The notes under the pieces are model-generated. The model searched no databases. It was not told where the DNA came from and saw only the letters and a program-made list of their open reading frames with translations. From the NCBI GenBank assembly GCA_963699155.1, contig OY969414.1, positions 1,227,757-1,291,756 on the forward strand: a stretch of 64,000 nucleotides of DNA, given 5' to 3'. Each line of letters begins with the position of its first letter. Position 1 is the first letter of the stretch. Positions 1 through 8,095 of this stretch are shown in pieces. The translations under genes and the position numbers were made by a program. The DNA is from an uncultured Chlamydiales bacterium (GTDB lineage: Bacteria; Chlamydiota; Chlamydiia; Chlamydiales; JAAKFR01).

Positions 1-127
1 TCAATCCCGGTATCGGCCTTCCTTCGCCCCCACAACGCCAGAATAATACCAATTTTTGGATGCAGGGTCTGACCGCCGGTATTTACGTTTGTTACTAACC
101 CCCTCTTTCCTATAGAATCTTCTCCTC

Positions 128-1348
128 ATGGAAAAGAAAGGATCTGTTTTATCAGCGACGCTTCTCGTTGCGGGGACATGCATTGGGGGAGGAATGTTAG
201 CCCTACCTGTCGCCACTGGGGCTTCCGGTTTCTTTCCCTCCTTCCTTCTGATTCTTGTCGGCTGGGCTTTCATGACTACCACGGCACTTTTTCTTGCAGA
301 GGTCAATCTCTGGATGGAACCAGGCGTTCACGTCATTGGAATGGCTTCGCGCTTTTTAGGACCACTCGGAAAGGCAGCCGCATGGATTCTCTACCTCTTT
401 ATCGGATATGCCTCCCTAGTTGCCTATACGGCCGGTGGTGGAGAGCTCTTTGCAGCGGGTATAAAAAAGGTTTTAGGCATCGATCTCTCCCATACTACTG
501 CACTCGTTCTCTTTGTGGTCATTTTTGGGACCATCATCTATTTGGGCAATACCATCGTCGGACGTGTCAACACCGTTTTAATGTTTGGATTGATCATTTC
601 CTATATTTTATTGATTGGCATCGGATTGCCCTATGTGCAGTGGAGACATCTCCTTAGAGGCTCCTTTGGCAATAGTTTGATCGCCATTCCGCTCCTGTTG
701 ACCATCTTTAGCTTCCAGACCATTGTCCCCAGCTTGACGATCTACTTGAAGCAGGATGCAAGAGCGCTGCGCCGCTCGATCATCTATGGAACGACATTTG
801 CCTTAGTGATCTATATCTTGTGGCAATTGCTCGTTCTCGGAACTGTACTCTATGAGGGTGATCAAGGTTTAGCAGCCGCTCTCGCACAAGGTAAACCGGC
901 AACTGAGTTTCTTGGGTCGGCGGTTGCAAACCCGTGGCTAGGGATGATTGCCGACTTTTTTGCTTTCTTTGCACTCGTCACCTCCTTTTTAGGCATCGCC
1001 CTCGGTTTGTTCGATTTCCTAGCCGATGGCTTAAAAATTAAACGGACCCATTTGGGAAATATAGCGCTCGGCTTTTTGGTCGCGCTGCCCACACTCTTTT
1101 TCGCACTGACGTTGGAGAGATGTTTCTTCATTGCGCTCGATAGCTCCGGAGGCATCGGTGATGCTCTTCTCAATGGACTCTTTCCCGGGCTCATGCTCTG
1201 GATAGGAAGGTACCGGGATCAATTGCCCTCCGAGTATAAAACTCCGGGAGGGAAGCCTCTCGTCATTGCCATTATCATCTATGCCCTCTTTGTCTTTACT
1301 GTTGAGATGTTAGGAAAGTTTGGCTTCATCGTCTCATTAGGTGGATAA
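128..1348 (+). CDS. tyrP: Aromatic amino acid (Tyr/Trp) permease, HAAAP family
   Basis: 406 aa polytopic membrane protein; N-terminal LLVAGTCIGGGMLALP motif and ALVTSFLG motif typical of TyrP/Mtr. Confidence 0.85.
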   Translation: MEKKGSVLSATLLVAGTCIGGGMLALPVATGASGFFPSFLLILVGWAFMTTTALFLAEVNLWMEPGVHVIGMASRFLGPLGKAAAWILYLFIGYASLVAYTAGGGELFAAGIKKVLGIDLSHTTALVLFVVIFGTIIYLGNTIVGRVNTVLMFGLIISYILLIGIGLPYVQWRHLLRGSFGNSLIAIPLLLTIFSFQTIVPSLTIYLKQDARALRRSIIYGTTFALVIYILWQLLVLGTVLYEGDQGLAAALAQGKPATEFLGSAVANPWLGMIADFFAFFALVTSFLGIALGLFDFLADGLKIKRTHLGNIALGFLVALPTLFFALTLERCFFIALDSSGGIGDALLNGLFPGLMLWIGRYRDQLPSEYKTPGGKPLVIAIIIYALFVFTVEMLGKFGFIVSLGG

Positions 1349-1497
1349 ATGAAACCGGAATTGGTCGAAGCCTTGAAAACCCTTCTCTAAAAAGGGAAGC
1401 CAACTCCCCACCCTCCTCAATAAAATCAATCTCTCCTCAAGGGATAATAAAAAAAGTGACAACGAAATAATTTTCTCAAAATAAGGAGAATGAATAG

Positions 1498-1768
1498 ACA
1501 TGTCGGGTGGGTTGCGTCACTTCGTGTCAGCAACCCCCCAGCGACCTAATACCGTCAAGTTAAGGAAATCCGCAGTTATTATAAGGGGAGGGCCCCTCGC
1601 GCTTTGCGCTCGCCCCCCTCCCCTTTTAACCCCTCCCCCACCCATTTTTGGGAGAGATCTGTCGACTCCGCGAGGATATTTGCCAAGACACAACATGGAT
1701 CCTAAATGGCTTCTCATTTATCTGTCGGGCGGTTGCTGACACGAAGTGACGCAACCCACCCGACATGT
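1498..1768. mobile_element. MITE/REPIN-like unit bounded by a perfect 38-bp inverted repeat
   Basis: ACATGTCGGGTGGGTTGCGTCACTTCGTGTCAGCAACC at 1498-1535, reverse complement at 1731-1768; no transposase ORF. Confidence 0.6.
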
Positions 1769-3430
1769 ATATAAGCTGCTTTTTAAGATCGATTGTACTG
1801 TCTTGGTTGCTTAGACTCCATTCTGGAAAATCTCTCCCAAACATGGGCGGGAGAGGGGTTTAAGGGGAGGGGGGCGAGCGAACGTAGTGATGCGAGGGGC
1901 CCTCCCCTTATAATAACTGCAGACTTCCTTAACTTGACGGCATTACCCAGCGACCCCCCTTGAGCCGCAGATTGCAAAGCCATATCGCCTCCTCGCTGGG
2001 AGGGTGTGCACAGCACTACCCTCCACGCTTCGCTCAGCTCCGGAAGCGATCTGGCTTTGCAATCTGCGGCCGCGGGCGCCTACGGCGCGGTCCCGCACTG
2101 CCTGGTGCTGGTTAAACCCTGAGGCAGTGAAAGTATCTCAGGTTATATCTTGCGGGAGTAATGCCTCGCCACTCCTGCCTGCGAACGGGGCACTCGCGCA
2201 CTCATTCCCCAGCGTGACTTCGTCTCTATGCTGGGGCCCCTTTCGTGTCAGCTCGTAGACATACCTGGAGGAGGGCCCTTCGCTTCGCTCACCCCGCTCC
2301 CCCAGACCCCTTCCCCCACCCATTGTTCAGGGGGAGAGAGGCTAACGCCGCCTCTCTCCCCCTATACCCCCTCTCTCAGCGGCAAAGGGGCATGCCCCTT
2401 TGCATACCTATAGCCCAACGTACGTGCTTCTAGCTCTTATTATCCAAGAGCTGTGTCCTTCCTAGATACTGCTGAGGGGTTCCAGTAAATGAGACGAAGT
2501 CTCTCAGGGGTATTCGTGCAAACACAAAATCGGGTGGGGGCGCCAAAGCTTCGCAATGGCACGGACCAGTGGAACGTCCCAAGATATGCATACGAGCGAG
2601 ATATGAGAGGTGCCAATCATAAAGTAAGTATGGCTATGTCTTGGGTAAATCACTTCCACTTCGACAAATCTCTCCCAAAAATGGGTGGGGGAGGGCGGCG
2701 CCCCGTTCGCAGGCAAGAGTTGCGAGGCATCACTTTCGCAAGATGTAACTAGAAATAATTTCGCAAAAAGAGCTTCAAGGATGGGTGGGGGTGGGGGCCA
2801 GGGGGAGGGGGGTGAGCGAGTGAAACGAGCGAAGGGCCCTCCCCCAGGTATGTCTACGAGCTGACACGAAAGGGGCCCCAGCATAGAGACGAAGTCACGC
2901 TGGGGAATGAGTGCGCGAGTGCCCCGTTCGCAGGCAGGAGTGGCGAGGCATTACTCCCGCAAGATATAACCTGAGATACTTTCACTGCCTCAGGGTTTAA
3001 CCAGCACCAGGCAGTGCGGGACCGCGCCGTAGGCGCCCGCGGCCGCATCTTGCTTTGCAGATCGCTTTCGCAGCTGAGTGAAACGTGGGGTCTAGTGCTT
3101 TGCACAGACCCCCAGCGAGAAAGCGATATGGCAAAGCAAGATGCGGCTCAACGGGGACAAGGTACCTCAAAAAGCCTCCAGTGGAGGGTTTTTGATGGGT
3201 TGTCCGAGAGTTCACAAGTTTACTTGTGAACCGAGGGGAAGCAGGGGGTTGCTGACACGAAGTGACGCAACCGCCCGACAGATAAATGAGAAGCCCTTTA
3301 AGATCGATTGTGATGTCTTTGTCGTTTAGACTCCATGCAGAAAAGCTTCTTCAAAAATGGGTGGGAGAGGGGTTTAAGGGGAGGGGGGCGAGCGATGCGT
3401 TAGCGAGCGAGGGGCCCTCCCCTTATAATA
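1498..3430. repeat. Non-coding mosaic of nested inverted and direct repeats
   Basis: ~1552-1660 inverted vs ~1830-1940; perfect ~204-bp IR 2065-2268 vs 2844-3047 (identical spurious ORF translations on opposite strands); ~3247-3430 repeats ~1731-1915 imperfectly; partial extra copy at ~2701-2750. Confidence 0.85.
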
Positions 3431-3441
3431 GTCGACTCGGT

Positions 3442-3858
3442 TTAGAGGTGCACCAGATGACGGAGCGCCTCCTGCTTCATCTTGAGGTAGAGGCTGGCAA
3501 GTCCGTTGGCCCTTCCGGGTGTCAATGCACTGGGGATGCCGATCTCTTCGAGAAAAGTGGGAGGGGAGAGAAGGATCGTTTCGGCAGGCTCTCCGCTATA
3601 GACTTCGATGAGAAGGGCAGCCAAGCCAGCCGAGATGAGGGCGTCAGAGGCAGCATAGAAATAGACCTTCTGGTTTTCATAGCGGCTATAGAGATACATC
3701 AGGCTCTGGCAGCCCGAGACCCGGTTTTCTTCGGTTTTCCAAGCAGGATCAAAGGAGGGGAGCTTCTTTCCCCCTTCCATAATTTCGCTATAGAGAGTTT
3801 CTTTAGTGACTAGGCTGTCGAAGCGTTGAATAAGAGCAGTGGCTTTAGTGAGGCTCAT
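3442..3858 (-). CDS. sufE: SufE family Fe-S cluster sulfur-transfer protein
   Basis: ENRVSGCQS motif, ASDALISAGL, LTPGRANG. Confidence 0.9.
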   Translation of the reverse strand: MSLTKATALIQRFDSLVTKETLYSEIMEGGKKLPSFDPAWKTEENRVSGCQSLMYLYSRYENQKVYFYAASDALISAGLAALLIEVYSGEPAETILLSPPTFLEEIGIPSALTPGRANGLASLYLKMKQEALRHLVHL

Positions 3859-4604
3859 AATTCTGGATGGCCTGGAGAGCTGGGGGAGAGGTTATTCGCT
3901 AAAGACTCTAGCTGTGCTAGCTTTGTTTTCATCTCTTCGATGCCCCTTTGCAGAACGTCACGCTGGTTTTCTTCTTTTTCCGGATCATGGCCCAGGTTTT
4001 GCCCTGAGCCGATTTTTACGGCCACTTGGAGAGCGATAAAGAGTCCAAAGACGGCCCCCATGACATAGGGGAAGACCACGGAAGCTGCCAACAGAACCGT
4101 CACAGCGACGGCAAGAACAATCTGTTTTGTTCCATTTTGATCGAGACCCTCGATTCCCTGATTGAGGATATTCCACAGCGTATATTTTCCTTCGGGATCA
4201 AAACTATTTACCGATAAAAGACCGGCAATGAGTCCAAAGGCAGCACCAAAACCCAGTCCAATTGTGAGTGGGAGGGCGACCGCCTTAAATCCATAGAGCA
4301 GCCCTGTGCAACTGATGATGACTCCCCATGTTAGGAGATAGCCGACCAATTGGCGCCAGTTATTTTTGACAAAGGTGGCTGTCTTTCCAAAGGCAGAACC
4401 TAAAGTGGCGACCACAGGAGTGATTCCCCAGGCGATGACCCCCAATGCTGTATCGAGAACCTGATCTGCCTGGCCGAGAGCGCTAGGAATTTTTTTAATT
4501 TCGGCGGTAAAGTCCTTGCGAAAGCTCTCCCAACAATGGTTGATCGATCCAGGAATGCAACAGCTCATGGCGTATAGAATAGGGCGCAAGGGTTTATCTT
4601 GCAA
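3855..4604 (-). CDS. Multi-pass membrane hypothetical protein (syntenic with the chlamydial gene between sufE and infA)
   Basis: 249 aa with several hydrophobic segments and a C-terminal coiled-coil-like tail; start codon uncertain. Confidence 0.6.
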   Translation of the reverse strand: MQDKPLRPILYAMSCCIPGSINHCWESFRKDFTAEIKKIPSALGQADQVLDTALGVIAWGITPVVATLGSAFGKTATFVKNNWRQLVGYLLTWGVIISCTGLLYGFKAVALPLTIGLGFGAAFGLIAGLLSVNSFDPEGKYTLWNILNQGIEGLDQNGTKQIVLAVAVTVLLAASVVFPYVMGAVFGLFIALQVAVKIGSGQNLGHDPEKEENQRDVLQRGIEEMKTKLAQLESLANNLSPSSPGHPEL

Positions 4605-4658
4605 TTAAAAAAGCATTGAAGTTTAATACCCTGTCATTGTAATTGATCTAGTGAATCT

Positions 4659-4877
4659 ATGCCGAAAGAAGATACCATAAAAGTGGAAGGGACCGTTGAA
4701 GAGCTGCTGCCCAACATGCATTTTCGGGTGGTTTTGGAAAATGGGATGACAGTGGTCGCTCACTTATGTGGCAAGATGAGAATGCGCAATATTCGAGTCC
4801 TGACGGGTGATAAAGTGACCGTGGAAATGTCGCCTTATGACCTTTCAAAAGCGCGGATCATCTATCGTCATCGGTAA
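4659..4877 (+). CDS. infA: Translation initiation factor IF-1
   Basis: 72 aa, [17 protein letters not shown]...[21 protein letters not shown]. Confidence 0.97.
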
Positions 4878-5007
4878 GCTTTCCCGCGCGCCCAATTTGG
4901 GAGAAATTTTGCTAACATTGTACCAGTTCTGCATTGCTGTTGATTTTTTTTAGATTTATTCCGTAAACTGTGCAGCTTATTCTAGAGGTACATTGTATGT
5001 GCTTTGT

Positions 5008-5079
5008 GCCCAGATAGCTCAGTGGTAGAGCACTTGCATGGTAAGCAAGAGGTCGTAGGTTCAATTCCTATTCTGGGCA
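5008..5079 (+). tRNA. tRNA-Thr(GGT)
   Basis: GCCCAGA acceptor pairs with TCTGGGC; anticodon arm CTTGC-ATGGTAA-GCAAG; T-loop GTTCAATT; CCA not encoded. Confidence 0.95.
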
Positions 5080-5129
5080 GTAGAAGTTAGAAATAAATAA
5101 AACTTAAAGCTTAACGGAGGATAGTCAAA

Positions 5130-6319
5130 ATGGCTAAAGAAACATTTCAAAGGAACAAGCCACACGTCAATATCGGAACAATCGGTCACGTCGACCATGG
5201 TAAAACTACGCTGACTGCTGCGATCACAAAAGTTCTGGCTGAGAAAGGGCAGAGCGAAATTTCGCGATTATGCTTCGATCGACAATACCCCCGAAGAAAA
5301 AGCGCGAGGGATTACGATTAACTCGACTCACGTCGAGTATGAAACAGAAATTCGCCACTATGCGCACGTCGACTGCCCAGGCCACGCTGACTATGTCAAG
5401 AACATGATCACCGGTGCTGCTCAGATGGATGGTGCGATTCTCGTCGTCGCAGCAACAGATGGTGCGATGCCTCAAACAAAAGAGCACATTCTCTTCGCTC
5501 GCCAGGTAGGCGTTCCTTCGATCGTCGTCTTCCTGAACAAAGTCGACATGATCGGTGAAGGCGATCAGGAGCTGATCGACCTCGTCGAAATGGAACTGAC
5601 ACGAACTTCTGGAAGCTAAAGGCTACAAAGATTGCCCCATTATTCGAGGATCCGGCCTCACGCGCTCTTGAAGGGGATCCGAAATATGTCGCAAGCCATC
5701 GTCGAGCTGATGAAAACTGTCGACGAACATATCCCCACACCCAAGCGTGAAGTCGACAAGCCCTTCCTGATGCCTGTCGAAGACGTCTTCTCTATTTCTG
5801 GCCGCGGAACTGTGGCTACCGGACGTGTCGAGCGTGGAGTTGTCAAAATCAACGATAAACTCCAGATCGTCGGCCTCCGTGAAACACGCGATAGCGTAGC
5901 TACAGGCCTCGAAATGTTCAACAAAACGTTGGACGAAGCGCGTGCAGGGGAAAACGTCGGGATCCTCCTCCGTGGTGTGGAGAAAGATGATATCGAGCGC
6001 GGTATGGTTCTCTGCGCTCCCGGTACATGTGACCCCGCACAAAAAATTTAAAGGCACAATCTATGTTCTGACCAAAGAAGAGGGAGGCCGCCATAAGCCC
6101 TTCTTCACAGGGTACCGTCCCCAGTTCTACTTCCGTACAACGGACGTGACGGGAACTGTCACTCTACCTGAAGGGACAGAGATGGTGATGCCCGGCGATA
6201 ACGTCGAGATCTCAGCTGAATTGATCGCTCCGATCGCGATGGAAGAGGGAATGCGTTTTGCGATCCGTGAAGGCGGCCGTACTATCGGTGCTGGAACGAT
6301 CTCAAAAATCATTGAGTAA
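5130..6319 (+). CDS. tuf: Elongation factor Tu (split by several apparent indels)
   Basis: [32 protein letters not shown] and C-terminal [14 protein letters not shown] lie in different frames; breaks near 5253, 5600-5690 and 6031. Confidence 0.93.
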
Positions 6320-6375
6320 CGCGCCTGGGATAGAGCAAGGGGTAAAACCCTTGCTCAAAACAACCTGACGAGCGG

Positions 6376-6447
6376 TGACTTCACACGGGGGTCGCTCACG
6401 AGAGATGACTTCCCACGGGGGTCCCTCACGAGAGATGACTTCCCACG
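6376..6447 (+). repeat. 30-bp tandem repeat, ~2.4 copies
   Basis: TGACTTC(A/C)CACGGGGGTC(G/C)CTCACGAGAGA at 6376 and 6406, partial copy at 6436. Confidence 0.85.
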
Positions 6448-6473
6448 AAAGGAGTCTTCTCTTGATCAGGTAT

Positions 6474-6546
6474 GGGTGTGTAGCTCAGCTGGTAGAGCAG
6501 CGGTCTCCAAAGCCGCCGGTCGGGGGTTCGAATCCCTCCGCACTCG
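6474..6546 (+). tRNA. tRNA-Trp(CCA)
   Basis: Cloverleaf; anticodon arm GCGGT-CTCCAAA-GCCGC; GTTCGAATC T-loop; canonical position before secE. Confidence 0.95.
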
Positions 6547-6600
6547 ATGATTCATTTAAAGAGCCAGTTTTGCAATTGGCTATAACGAGAGAAATCAAAG

Positions 6601-6873
6601 ATGGTTGGTGAACAGGTACAAAAAATGGATGTCAAGAAAGGCCGCTCATCCTCTTCTGCTAAAGCTGAAGGGCAAAAAGTCGTAGCTTTTATCGGCGATG
6701 TCAAGCAGGAGCTCAAAAGAGTCGAATGGACGAGTAAAGAGGAAATAAAAAATTATACCAAAATTGTCCTTTTGAGCACCTTCATTTTCGCTGCATTCAT
6801 CTATGTGGTCGACCTAGTGATCCAAGGATTCCTGGGAGGAATCAACCTTCTTGTTAAGTTAATTACCGGATAG
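6601..6873 (+). CDS. secE: Preprotein translocase subunit SecE
   Basis: ELKRVEWTSKEE motif followed by one TM helix; lies between tRNA-Trp and nusG. Confidence 0.92.
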   Translation: MVGEQVQKMDVKKGRSSSSAKAEGQKVVAFIGDVKQELKRVEWTSKEEIKNYTKIVLLSTFIFAAFIYVVDLVIQGFLGGINLLVKLITG

Positions 6874-6880
6874 TTTTGAC

Positions 6881-7426
6881 ATGAAGAAATGGTACGTCGT
6901 TCAAGTCTATACAGCTCAAGAGAAAAAAGTAAAAAAAGCTCTTGAAGAGTTTCGGGAATCTTCTGGCGTTGCAGATCTCATCGAAGAAATTCTACTGCCC
7001 ACAGAAAATGTCATGGAGGTCAAAAAAGGGGAGCAAAAGATCTCCGAAAAAAGAATTTGGCCAGGCTATGTTCTCATTAAGATGGAGCTGACAGATGACT
7101 CCTGGCAGTATGTCAAACACGCCGCCGGCGTCATCGACTTTTTGGGAGGGGAAAGGCCAACCTCGCTCACAGATGGCGAAGTCAATAGTATTCTCAAAGA
7201 GCTCGAAGATAAAAAATCGGGTGTGACCCAGAAACACAAAATTGAAGCCGGTGATCGCGTCAAAATCAACGATGGCGTCTTCGTTAACTTTATTGGGACC
7301 GTCCAAGAGGTCTTTCAAGACAAGGGCCGTCTGAGTGTGATGGTCTCCATCTTCGGCCGCGACACCCGGGTCGACGACCTAGAATTCTGGCAAGTCGAGG
7401 AAGTCACCCCCGACACCGAACTTTGA
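6881..7426 (+). CDS. nusG: Transcription termination/antitermination factor NusG
   Basis: KWYVVQV, WPGYVLIKM, KOW motif, VSIFGRDT. Confidence 0.96.
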   Translation: MKKWYVVQVYTAQEKKVKKALEEFRESSGVADLIEEILLPTENVMEVKKGEQKISEKRIWPGYVLIKMELTDDSWQYVKHAAGVIDFLGGERPTSLTDGEVNSILKELEDKKSGVTQKHKIEAGDRVKINDGVFVNFIGTVQEVFQDKGRLSVMVSIFGRDTRVDDLEFWQVEEVTPDTEL

Positions 7427-7433
7427 TTTATAA

Positions 7434-7565
7434 TTCAACGCAAAGACACAGAGACGCAAAGTCGCAAAGACACAGAGACGCAAAGTCGCAAAGAAAAGAG
7501 GAAAGCCGGAGTCGTCACCAAAAAATTTGATTCCTTTCTTAGCGTCTTTGCGCCTTTGCGTTGAA
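7434..7565. repeat. CGCAAAG short-repeat element with inverted ends
   Basis: Two tandem 24-bp units CGCAAAGACACAGAGACGCAAAGT; ends TTCAACGCAAAG ... CTTTGCGTTGAA are inverted. Confidence 0.8.
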
Positions 7566-7660
7566 TTTTTAATAAGTTTTTGGTGACGAAAAAAAGCGGG
7601 ATTCATATAATAGCCGGCATTCTGCCTCTATTACGTACGTAATGTTCAAGGAAAATTGTC

Positions 7661-8095
7661 ATGGCTAAGAAAGTCGTCAAATTAATCAAGCTTCAGATTC
7701 CAGCTGGAAAAGCCAACCCTGCGCCGCCCATTGGGCCTGCTCTCGGTGCTGCAGGGGTCAATATTATGGCCTTTTGCAAAGATTTCAATGCGAAGACGCA
7801 AGAGATGAGTGGAGATATTCTCCCCGTTGAAATTACAGTCTATGCAGATAAAAGTATTACCTTCATCACGAAACAGCCCCCTGTGCCGAATATGATTAAA
7901 AAAACCTTGGGACTTGAATCGGGCTCAAAGATTCCTAACCGAGACAAGGTGGGCAGACTGAGCAATGCTCAGGCTGAAGAGATCGCGAAAAAGAAATATC
8001 CCGATATGGGAGTCCGTACACTACGCTCTGCAGTGAGAATGGTGAAAGGGACTGCTCGTAGCATGGGAATCGATGTCGATCCAGAAGAGGAATAA
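7661..8095 (+). CDS. rplK: 50S ribosomal protein L11
   Basis: [27 protein letters not shown]. Confidence 0.97.

Follow-up and report, generated by a model that had tools for sequence, protein, structure and literature searches.

The window, a stretch of 64,000 nucleotides (nt) from the genome of an uncultured Chlamydiales bacterium (G000, a single contig of 2.40 Mb with 47.5% G+C), contains, besides a gene order infA, tRNA, tuf that suits an environmental chlamydia, a 2.09-kb spacer between the convergent permease and sufE genes (positions 1349-3441). About 1.9 kb of this spacer consists of stacked repeats that reach to ~10 nt from the sufE stop codon, and by BLAST coverage of G000 the segment 1480-3440 is composed of dispersed repeats. 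A hairpin of ~107 nt, here named hpB, is located at 1964-2070 on the plus strand (copy w1) and again at 3042-3147 on the minus strand (copy w2). The analysis showed that hpB is the middle module, and the best conserved one, of a dispersed repeat without genes that occurs in environmental chlamydiae, usually in convergent intergenic pairs, and that the segment 1495-3288 of the window is one convergent fold-back pair with nested insertions of three other small repeats. An earlier note on this DNA had described a hairpin module present twice, which holds within the window but not genome-wide, where BLASTN detected 13 loci (6 intact, 5 split by an insert of ~115 nt, and 2 partial); the note did not recognize that the hairpin, far from being an independent motif with two copies, belongs as a module to a fold-back repeat that is dispersed and insertion-polymorphic.

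Fold, covariation and conserved loops of hpB

Both w1 and w2 fold into one long three-tier hairpin on both strands, with RNA minimum free energies of -66.8 to -76.8 kcal/mol compared to -31 to -38 kcal/mol for 200 dinucleotide shuffles (z of -10.8 to -11.9), none of which matched the native folding energy. The three nested stems quoted in the earlier note agree with the sequence at both places, save for a single C.A mismatch in the middle stem of w1 (ATCGCCTCC / GGAAGCGAT), and the arms were recovered independently by the repeat search (inverted repeats I17 and I24). At a larger scale, w1 and w2 form the outer ends of an inverted repeat, 1955-2317 / 2795-3156, which is 81% complementary between its arms in the hairpin part (I2) and 93% in the remainder (I1). 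Searching window positions 1-8000 against Rfam 15 with cmscan (E ≤ 1) gave no match at 1964-2070 or 3042-3147, and elsewhere only tRNAs and sub-threshold microRNA noise were reported. Open reading frames (ORFs) of 51-84 aa traverse hpB copies; the coding reading was rejected because copy lengths (96-145 nt) differ by numbers not divisible by 3 and because it is base pairing that is conserved.

A covariance model, R1, was built on ten aligned hpB copies (MAFFT alignment, RNAalifold consensus of 40 pairs) and scored w1 with 118.3 bits and w2 with 110.5 bits. Two-sided changes were present in 21 of the 40 pairs of the MAFFT alignment according to RNAalifold. In the covariation test set of 41 best-strand copies from 6 genomes, 92.9% of the cells formed standard pairs, compared to 38-50% when partners were slid by 1-3 columns, and two-sided changes were found in 28/40 pairs; the alignment of this set (A3) was fitted to the model structure, so that the pairing numbers are generous, although they are in line with both the slid controls and the MAFFT alignment. 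The covariation score was reached by 0/500 shuffles, a control that overstates the significance because the hpB copies are kin by descent. The stems flanking the loops covary as GCCGCA/TGCGGC, GCCTCA/TGAGGC, GCTTTAA/TTAAAGC, and GACTTA/TAAGTC. The hpB fold is maintained family-wide.

The two window copies differ in the middle stem (TTCC/GGAA to TTTC/GAAA) and in the inner stem (GGAGGGT/ACCCTCC compared to GGGGTCT/AGACCCC), and these variants match subfamily variants of other copies. The differences belong to ordinary subfamily variation with pairing kept and are part of the family-wide covariation. In these two stems, the differences reflect a real maintenance of the fold across the family; in the outer stem, by contrast, one arm appears to have been overwritten by the complement of the other, as described below.

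The two internal loops of the outer stem are ancestral and conserved. The standard outer arms in G000, 5′ GCCGCATCTTGCTTTGC and 3′ GCTTTGCAATCTGCGGC, occur with 0-2 substitutions in 8/11 complete copies and pair over 6 bp up to a TC/TC mismatch, then over 4 bp up to a TTT/TTT mismatch, beyond which pairing resumes. The outer stem was surveyed in 75 distinct hpB copies from 13 genomes. Position 8 was unpaired in 59 of the 63 copies with flanking stems in register, the 4 exceptions being copies with a perfected outer stem, and pyrimidines accounted for 491/590 loop letters (83%). The apex hardly varies and consists of GTGC-N3-GCAC with a bulged T behind it (motif GTGC-N3-GCAC-T-A), and tandem G.U/U.G pairs are conserved at two middle-stem positions (28 and 24 of 41 copies), in most copies of genomes G031 and G048.

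Copies, composite units and layout of the window element

Copies from this and related genomes were collected with BLASTN and R1. Besides w1 and w2, the intact copies in G000 are located at 607635, 2375925, 2208504, and 321201, and three convergent hpB pairs are present in this genome. The R1 searches covered two samples of 151 genomes each from the same order and gave matches in 12/151 genomes of the first sample and 15/151 of the second, with 10/22 genomes of family f8 positive and 0/27 in a family of 1.0-1.2-Mb genomes. Diverged copies were also detected by BLAST in G001, a genome of the same genus as G000, and in G031, which belongs to a different family, while hpB was missing in the same-genus genomes G002 (BLAST and R1) and G003 (BLAST). 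Copy number spans 0 to at least 36 among related genomes.

In G031, R1 detected 36 hpB copies in 21 fetched loci, namely 14 close pairs and 8 singles. From the flanks of 20 G031 copies, a unit of ~250 nt was delimited that consists of the terminus TAGACATGTCGGG, a small first hairpin hpA, a linker CCCCTGCGACCCCCTTGA/C, hpB, a short linker GTCGGGCTGC, and a third hairpin hpC, which in G031 ends with ...CGTCGTCTCGCAG or a variant. In G031, the terminal 13-mer TAGACATGTCGGG with up to 1 mismatch was counted 37 times on each strand, compared to 0/1 for the backwards control, and in 12 of the fetched loci the termini TAGACATGTCGGG ... CCCGACATGTCTA enclose units that are 321-590 nt long. Some of the 'single' G031 copies sit inside full-length units with both termini.

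Every one of the 14 close G031 pairs has the convergent order (+ then -), the hairpins being 150-190 nt apart, and 12/14 join distinct hpB types, GCCTCA with GCTTYAA (P/Q); pair partners are less alike (mean identity of 0.757) than non-partners (0.81). The close opposite-strand pairs noticed by eye among the R1 matches in other genomes were all + then - as well, for example, in G228 (903958/904344), G206 (1193967/1194259), G202 (374218/374568), and G161 (6490/6854). In G070 and G122, the unit is solitary, with an A-run/T-run stem that closes a three-hairpin junction, some copies in these two genomes consist of hpB and a short tail alone, and G048 copies have a different 5′ context. Since hpB recurs with differing flanks, it is a shared module of differing composites. 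In one G001 locus (L005, G001:C7, 760-1800), the inverted symmetry of the pair extends on either side by at least ~100 nt into flanks that look unique, which reflects either a large inverted duplication or a draft-assembly artefact.

The features of the window element are listed in Table 1. The inverted repeat I15 (1510-1538 / 3244-3272), which covers hpA and hpA', is 100% complementary. The hpC of the window is also homologous to the hpC modules of G001 and G031, a module similar to 2259-2317 comes after hpC in G001 locus L005, and a Y-type arrangement is likewise found upstream of c2376, c2208, and c321a.

Table 1. Features of the fold-back element in the permease-sufE spacer (window positions)
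Feature	Position	Strand	Description
5′ terminus of left unit E(+)	1495-1507	+	TAGACATGTCGGG; genome coordinate 1229253, from motif scan
hpA, small first hairpin of E(+)	1508-1540	+	Inverted repeats I5/I15; hairpin at equivalent position in G031, G001, and G070
MITE-2, nested in hpA-hpB linker	1547-1945	.	Unrelated miniature inverted-repeat transposable element (MITE) of ~400 bp; I4 arms 1547-1600 / 1892-1945, 94%
C-rich linker before hpB	1946-1963	+	CCCAGCGACCCCCCTTGA; conserved in G001, G031, G070, and G122 copies
hpB copy 1 (w1)	1964-2070	+	Perfected outer stem; 5′ arm is complement of 3′ arm
Repeat X insertion	2076-2190	.	~115 nt, right after hpB; missing there in c607, c2376, c2208, and c321a
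hpC, third hairpin of E(+)	2191-2258	+	Ends ...GTGTCAGCTCGTAG; homologous to sequence directly after hpB in c607, c2376, and c2208
Further repeat module	2259-2317	+	Inner end of left arm; I1 arms 2059-2317 / 2795-3053
Centre between arms	2318-2794	.	Partly single-copy (BLAST coverage); partial third X at 2700-2762 (D4/I3)
Right-arm mirror of 2071-2317	2795-3041	-	Module, hpC' ~2854-2921, X' ~2922-3036; I1 of 259 nt, 93% complementary
hpB copy 2 (w2)	3042-3147	-	Opposite direction; perfected outer stem; 3′ arm is complement of 5′ arm
E'(-) linker interrupted by module Y	3148-3243	-	Y of ~80 nt; terminator-like hairpin 3175-3187, both strands
hpA' and degenerate 5′ terminus of E'(-)	3244-3288	-	Terminus CCCGACAGATAA on + strand; hpA' 3244-3272

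MITE-2 has 54-nt terminal inverted repeats and lies between the two copies (about 1538-1546 and 1947-1955) of a 9-10 bp target duplication, CCAGCGACC. Its terminal repeat adjoins a 347-aa DDE_Tnp_1 transposase ORF at G000 941509-942900, and this element is probably the parent insertion sequence (IS) of MITE-2.

The segment of repeat X (2076-2190) has about 48 BLAST matches in G000, compared to about 10-13 for the hairpin. An X insert splits hpB at the same apical-stem point in five G000 copies (32624, 410631, 445793, 2274144, and 321728), and in 3/5 of these (c410, c2274, and c321b) the 5′ and 3′ halves are of different inner-stem types. X also sits just after hpB in both window copies. Either X targets the hpB element or the composites were copied after insertion.

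Perfected outer stems and proposed arm-to-arm correction

A perfect 17-bp outer stem was found in only 4/75 copies, w1, w2, and c2208 in G000 and one copy in G048 whose three siblings retain the loops. In w1 and c2208, the 3′ arm is standard and the 5′ arm is its exact complement, and in w2 the 5′ arm is standard and the 3′ arm is its exact complement; likewise, one arm of the G048 copy is exactly complementary to the family-standard other arm. There are two partial cases: p2206 (2206692), in which GA was converted and TTT was not, and one copy in G125 with the 3x3 loop alone closed. Since each perfected copy consists of a standard arm and its complement, the two outer stems correspond to both outcomes of overwriting one arm of an imperfect palindrome, and the apparent compensation between w1 and w2 is most readily explained as quasipalindrome correction that removed the conserved loops. 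Overwriting of opposite arms would have produced two perfect but different outer stems and, with them, the resemblance to compensatory evolution. The perfected G048 copy (L088, G048:C63) is located at a poorly assembled place, where a long C-run is followed by the contig end.

A single rearrangement, an inversion or a reciprocal exchange, as the origin of both window stems was rejected, and two intra-hairpin events were favored. Inversions between any of the arms leave the mismatches intact, and a reciprocal swap confined to the two 17-nt left arms would need two patch conversions without flanking homology.

In studies with Escherichia coli and yeast reporters (PMC6357072, PMC7202029, and PMC8604942), quasipalindrome template switching likewise perfects an inverted repeat through clusters of 2 and 3 bases, and in hpB each change complements the other arm and either arm may be overwritten. 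The chlamydial case would differ in that resident members of a repeat family, rather than a reporter construct, show the product as it arises in nature. According to passages of PMC6357072, mutations of this type 'universally perfect the palindromic sequence', are templated by the other arm, and occur on both replication strands, and the leading strand was more mutable under induced damage in the E. coli quasipalindrome work. In G000, the replication origin is at about 0.35-0.40 Mb by cumulative GC skew and the terminus at about 1.62 Mb, and the overwritten arm is origin-proximal in 3/3 perfected copies (1229720-1229826, 1230798-1230903, and 2208504-2208610). In contrast to the leading strand of E. 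coli, this would imply the lagging strand under a simple nascent-strand fold-back model, although three cases, two of them neighbors, give only a hint.

The quality of the assembly bears on these comparisons. The tuf gene for EF-Tu in the window (5130-6319) needs at least 4 frame changes to be read, although its pieces are well-conserved EF-Tu sequence, and a second tuf copy was absent from the G000 genome by BLASTN. Indel errors of a long-read assembly are the likeliest cause of the frame breaks, rather than a pseudogene. The G000 assembly therefore probably has indel errors, and the one-base difference in length between w1 and w2 is not trustworthy, while the arm differences under comparison are clustered substitutions and not indels. 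Among the runs listed for G000, no RNA sequencing run was found; three soil-metagenome DNA runs from one study matched G000 with shares of 0.05-0.14. Their contigs are short pieces of repeat modules, none across a hairpin, which neither confirm nor question the assembly of w1 and w2, and the few joints they contain derive from other repeat copies.

Mobility, competing explanations and known systems

In G001 (L112, C18 1460-1500), about 35 nt separate the convergent permease and sufE genes, compared to 2.09 kb in G000. Similarly, the sites orthologous to a G031 element (L092 1947-2452) are empty in its congeners G213 (89-nt gap) and G206 (78-nt gap). These empty sites in related species, at two loci, indicate that the element is, or was, mobile. 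All G031 copies examined were intergenic. Both sides of the element are flanked by TA, which is self-complementary and may be part of the terminus.

An IS481-family element with a 379-aa ORF (helix-turn-helix, LZ_Tnp_IS481, and rve domains; identical copy at G000 943009-944148) is located between the arms of a convergent pair in G000 (2206500-2208800; L135, 715-1854) and in G001:C31 (L136). Wide-spaced pairs examined as a home for an hpB-associated gene contained this IS481-family filler in G000 and G001, and elsewhere short ORFs without evident meaning. The sole 1-kb unit, found in G206, encodes a 97-aa ORF that is not a transposase. In this fold-back element (L125, G206:C1:802400-804100, 321-1356), the ORF (676-969) lies between the arms and is a possible passenger gene.

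Taken as a whole, hpB is part of an insertion-polymorphic fold-back repeat, the fold and loops of which are probably selected in propagating copies, while resident copies would be hit by quasipalindrome correction. Selection would keep the three-tier fold and the two pyrimidine-rich loops in those copies that seed new ones, likely because a protein recognizes the folded single strand, either as DNA in replication or transposition or as RNA, by analogy with REP hairpins and their mismatches (see below). Resident copies would occasionally be corrected by resynthesis of one arm on the other, with the result that both outer-stem loops would have been erased in w1 by overwriting of the 5′ arm and in w2 by overwriting of the 3′ arm. 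Selection and template-switch correction, which the earlier note had offered as alternative reasons for the kept fold, would each explain a different part of the hairpin.

Apart from the generous pairing numbers and the overstated shuffle significance mentioned above, several points weigh against this explanation. Correction is known here from its expected product and not from observed switching, and patchy gene conversion between copies could have moved the arms instead. If frequent, correction should have removed the loops everywhere, yet they remain; it is this survival for which selection is invoked, and the argument for it is indirect. The hpB is split by X in 5/11 complete G000 copies, and the existence of such copies means that an intact hpB is not needed for copy persistence. 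No direct repeat longer than TA was found around 12 G031 elements, and in some copies a further palindromic module adjoins the outer end. With regard to an enzyme, Y1_Tnp (PF01797) was detected in 0/5 carriers (G000, G001, G031, G048, and G070), with the control positive in 6/14 reference genomes, and IS630-type DDE_3 (PF13358) in 1/5 carriers as fragments only, a screen that did not extend to IS110, IS91, IS4/IS5, IS256, or other families; nor was there any larger unit in which these termini enclose a transposase ORF.

It is also conceivable, though unlikely, that hpB or the three-hairpin unit is a structured RNA that serves the host as a 3′-end stabilizer, a bidirectional terminator or insulator, or a processing signal, mobility accounting only for its spread. 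Strong covariation and conserved non-canonical loops across several families are in line with such a function, as are the tandem G.U/U.G pairs conserved at two middle-stem positions in most G031 and G048 copies, the single unit of G070 and G122 with its A-run/T-run closing stem and a terminal hairpin followed by a T-run, and the convergent pair, which offers a sense copy first to transcription from either side; the MITEs ERIC and Correia act on mRNA according to passages of PMC3733652. However, no orientation preference was apparent when gene context in G031 was assigned with crude stop-to-stop ORFs of at least 110 aa, as 17/28 sides of the 14 pairs face a gene 3′ end, the 6 pairs between tandem genes are divided 3:3 between P-Q and Q-P, and 4/8 singles are located between divergent genes. 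Close relatives do without the element (G002; empty sites in G001, G213, and G206), and a promoter-like site was not found in 1300-3500. The strands disagree as well, with G.U pairs on the modeled strand and yet better folding of the opposite strand in 45/64 copies with RNA parameters and 61/64 with DNA parameters, a difference that is partly due to purine-rich loops and not decisive. Wobble pairs on the modeled strand numbered 57 for G.U/U.G compared to 36 for A.C/C.A, but a strand call from them was dropped because 52/57 of the G.U cases fall at two conserved positions in kin, non-independent copies.

Chromosome structure or supercoiling could be served by the pairs as domesticated double-stranded or cruciform sites, in the manner of the bacterial interspersed mosaic elements (BIMEs) of E. 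coli that bind IHF, gyrase, and polymerase I. Strict alternation of heterotypic units (14/14 convergent, 12/14 P/Q), the intergenic position of all copies examined, and the almost invariant apical GTGC-N3-GCAC-T-A suit such a role, but a copy number of 0 to at least 36 in related genomes, the polymorphism of sites within genera, and the fact that no binding protein is known make it quite improbable. Similarly little credit is given to pairing kept purely by recurrent arm-to-arm conversion, through template switching or hairpin mismatch repair, with covariation as a by-product and no selection on the fold. The four fully and two partly perfected copies show such a process acting on the element, and compensated pairs have few intermediates, with just 5 G.U cells beyond the two conserved tandem positions. 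Yet conversion, if unchecked, should remove the asymmetric side loop and the T that bulges out behind the apical mini-hairpin as well as the 2x2 and 3x3 loops, whereas all of these keep their position and their pyrimidine content in the 12 other genomes (position 8 unpaired in 59/63), tandem G.T pairs persist, and perfect copies are rare (4/75).

Compared to known systems, the mobile fold-back repeat proposed here resembles the repetitive extragenic palindromes (REPs) of proteobacteria, with their BIMEs and with their doublets (REPINs), which REP-associated tyrosine transposases (RAYTs) move, as a folding palindromic unit repeated in intergenic DNA. Its inverted doublets (14/14 G031 close pairs convergent; 3 pairs in G000) correspond to REPINs, its doublets of units that are usually of different types (12/14 G031 pairs) to BIMEs, in which passages of PMC2817692 describe alternating REP types, and its conserved mismatches inside the hairpin to REPs, as does the insertion of other IS into the element, exemplified by the IS481-family ORF between the arms. 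REPs are described in passages of PMC3733652 as short palindromes of 20-40 nt with a GTAG or CGTC tag at one end, and when the mismatches within the hairpin of an E. coli REP were closed, cleavage by its RAYT was abolished. By contrast, hpB has 96-145 nt and three nested stems, no GTAG/CGTC tag was seen at its ends, which read GCC.../...GGC or GCTT.../...AAGC, a Y1/RAYT gene is missing in 5/5 carriers, and the chlamydial doublet is about 450-590 nt long with two further hairpins per arm in a different host phylum, Chlamydiota. Integron attC sites and IS110 bridge RNAs offer further analogies, as recombination sites that are read by their structure, although no relationship of hpB to them is claimed. 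A more specific and rather doubtful proposal is that chlamydiae have a class of mobile DNA not described so far, a 'giant REP' system, in which hpB serves as the module for recognition or is a structured RNA carried along, with a reader that is not Y1/RAYT or IS630-type. In that case, the pyrimidine-pyrimidine loops, the bulged T, and the GTGC-N3-GCAC tip might be read single-stranded by a new partner enzyme, and the copies with perfected stems would be dead, their overwritten arms a record of the direction in which replication-linked template switching ran.

Hairpin MITEs are non-coding elements of 100-600 nt with inverted termini, an intergenic position, variable copy number, a modular structure with nested insertions, and a stable predicted fold. 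The chlamydial repeat shares with MITEs the inverted termini, the lack of coding capacity, empty sites in relatives, nested insertions, and a copy number that differs between relatives. It departs from them in that conservation, with covariation, extends over several families in an internal hairpin, also without the usual flanks, while in most MITEs only the termini are conserved, and in that the screens for PF01797 and PF13358 gave no parent IS and the flanks no clear target duplication for the hpB unit. ERIC/IRU, Correia/NEMIS, RUP, and the Rickettsia RPE are named as MITEs folding into long hairpins in passages of PMC3733652; unlike with RPE, no hpB copy was seen inside a gene. No published description of such repeats in chlamydiae was found in the open literature, subscription journals and supplements not being covered, and the view of the earlier note that the hairpin belongs to no known family agrees with this and with the Rfam result.

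For annotation, the permease-sufE spacer is to be regarded as a set of nested small repeats and not as a set of RNA genes. In many genomes of chlamydiae, programs that search for RNA motifs or ORFs will be misled by the hpB family, which R1 recognizes. The family also constitutes a natural data set in which selection on a fold, visible in the stems and specific loops, can be separated from quasipalindrome correction, visible in the rare perfect copies. If an enzyme that reads the loops were found, a REP/RAYT-like system would be added to an obligate intracellular phylum for which none has been described.

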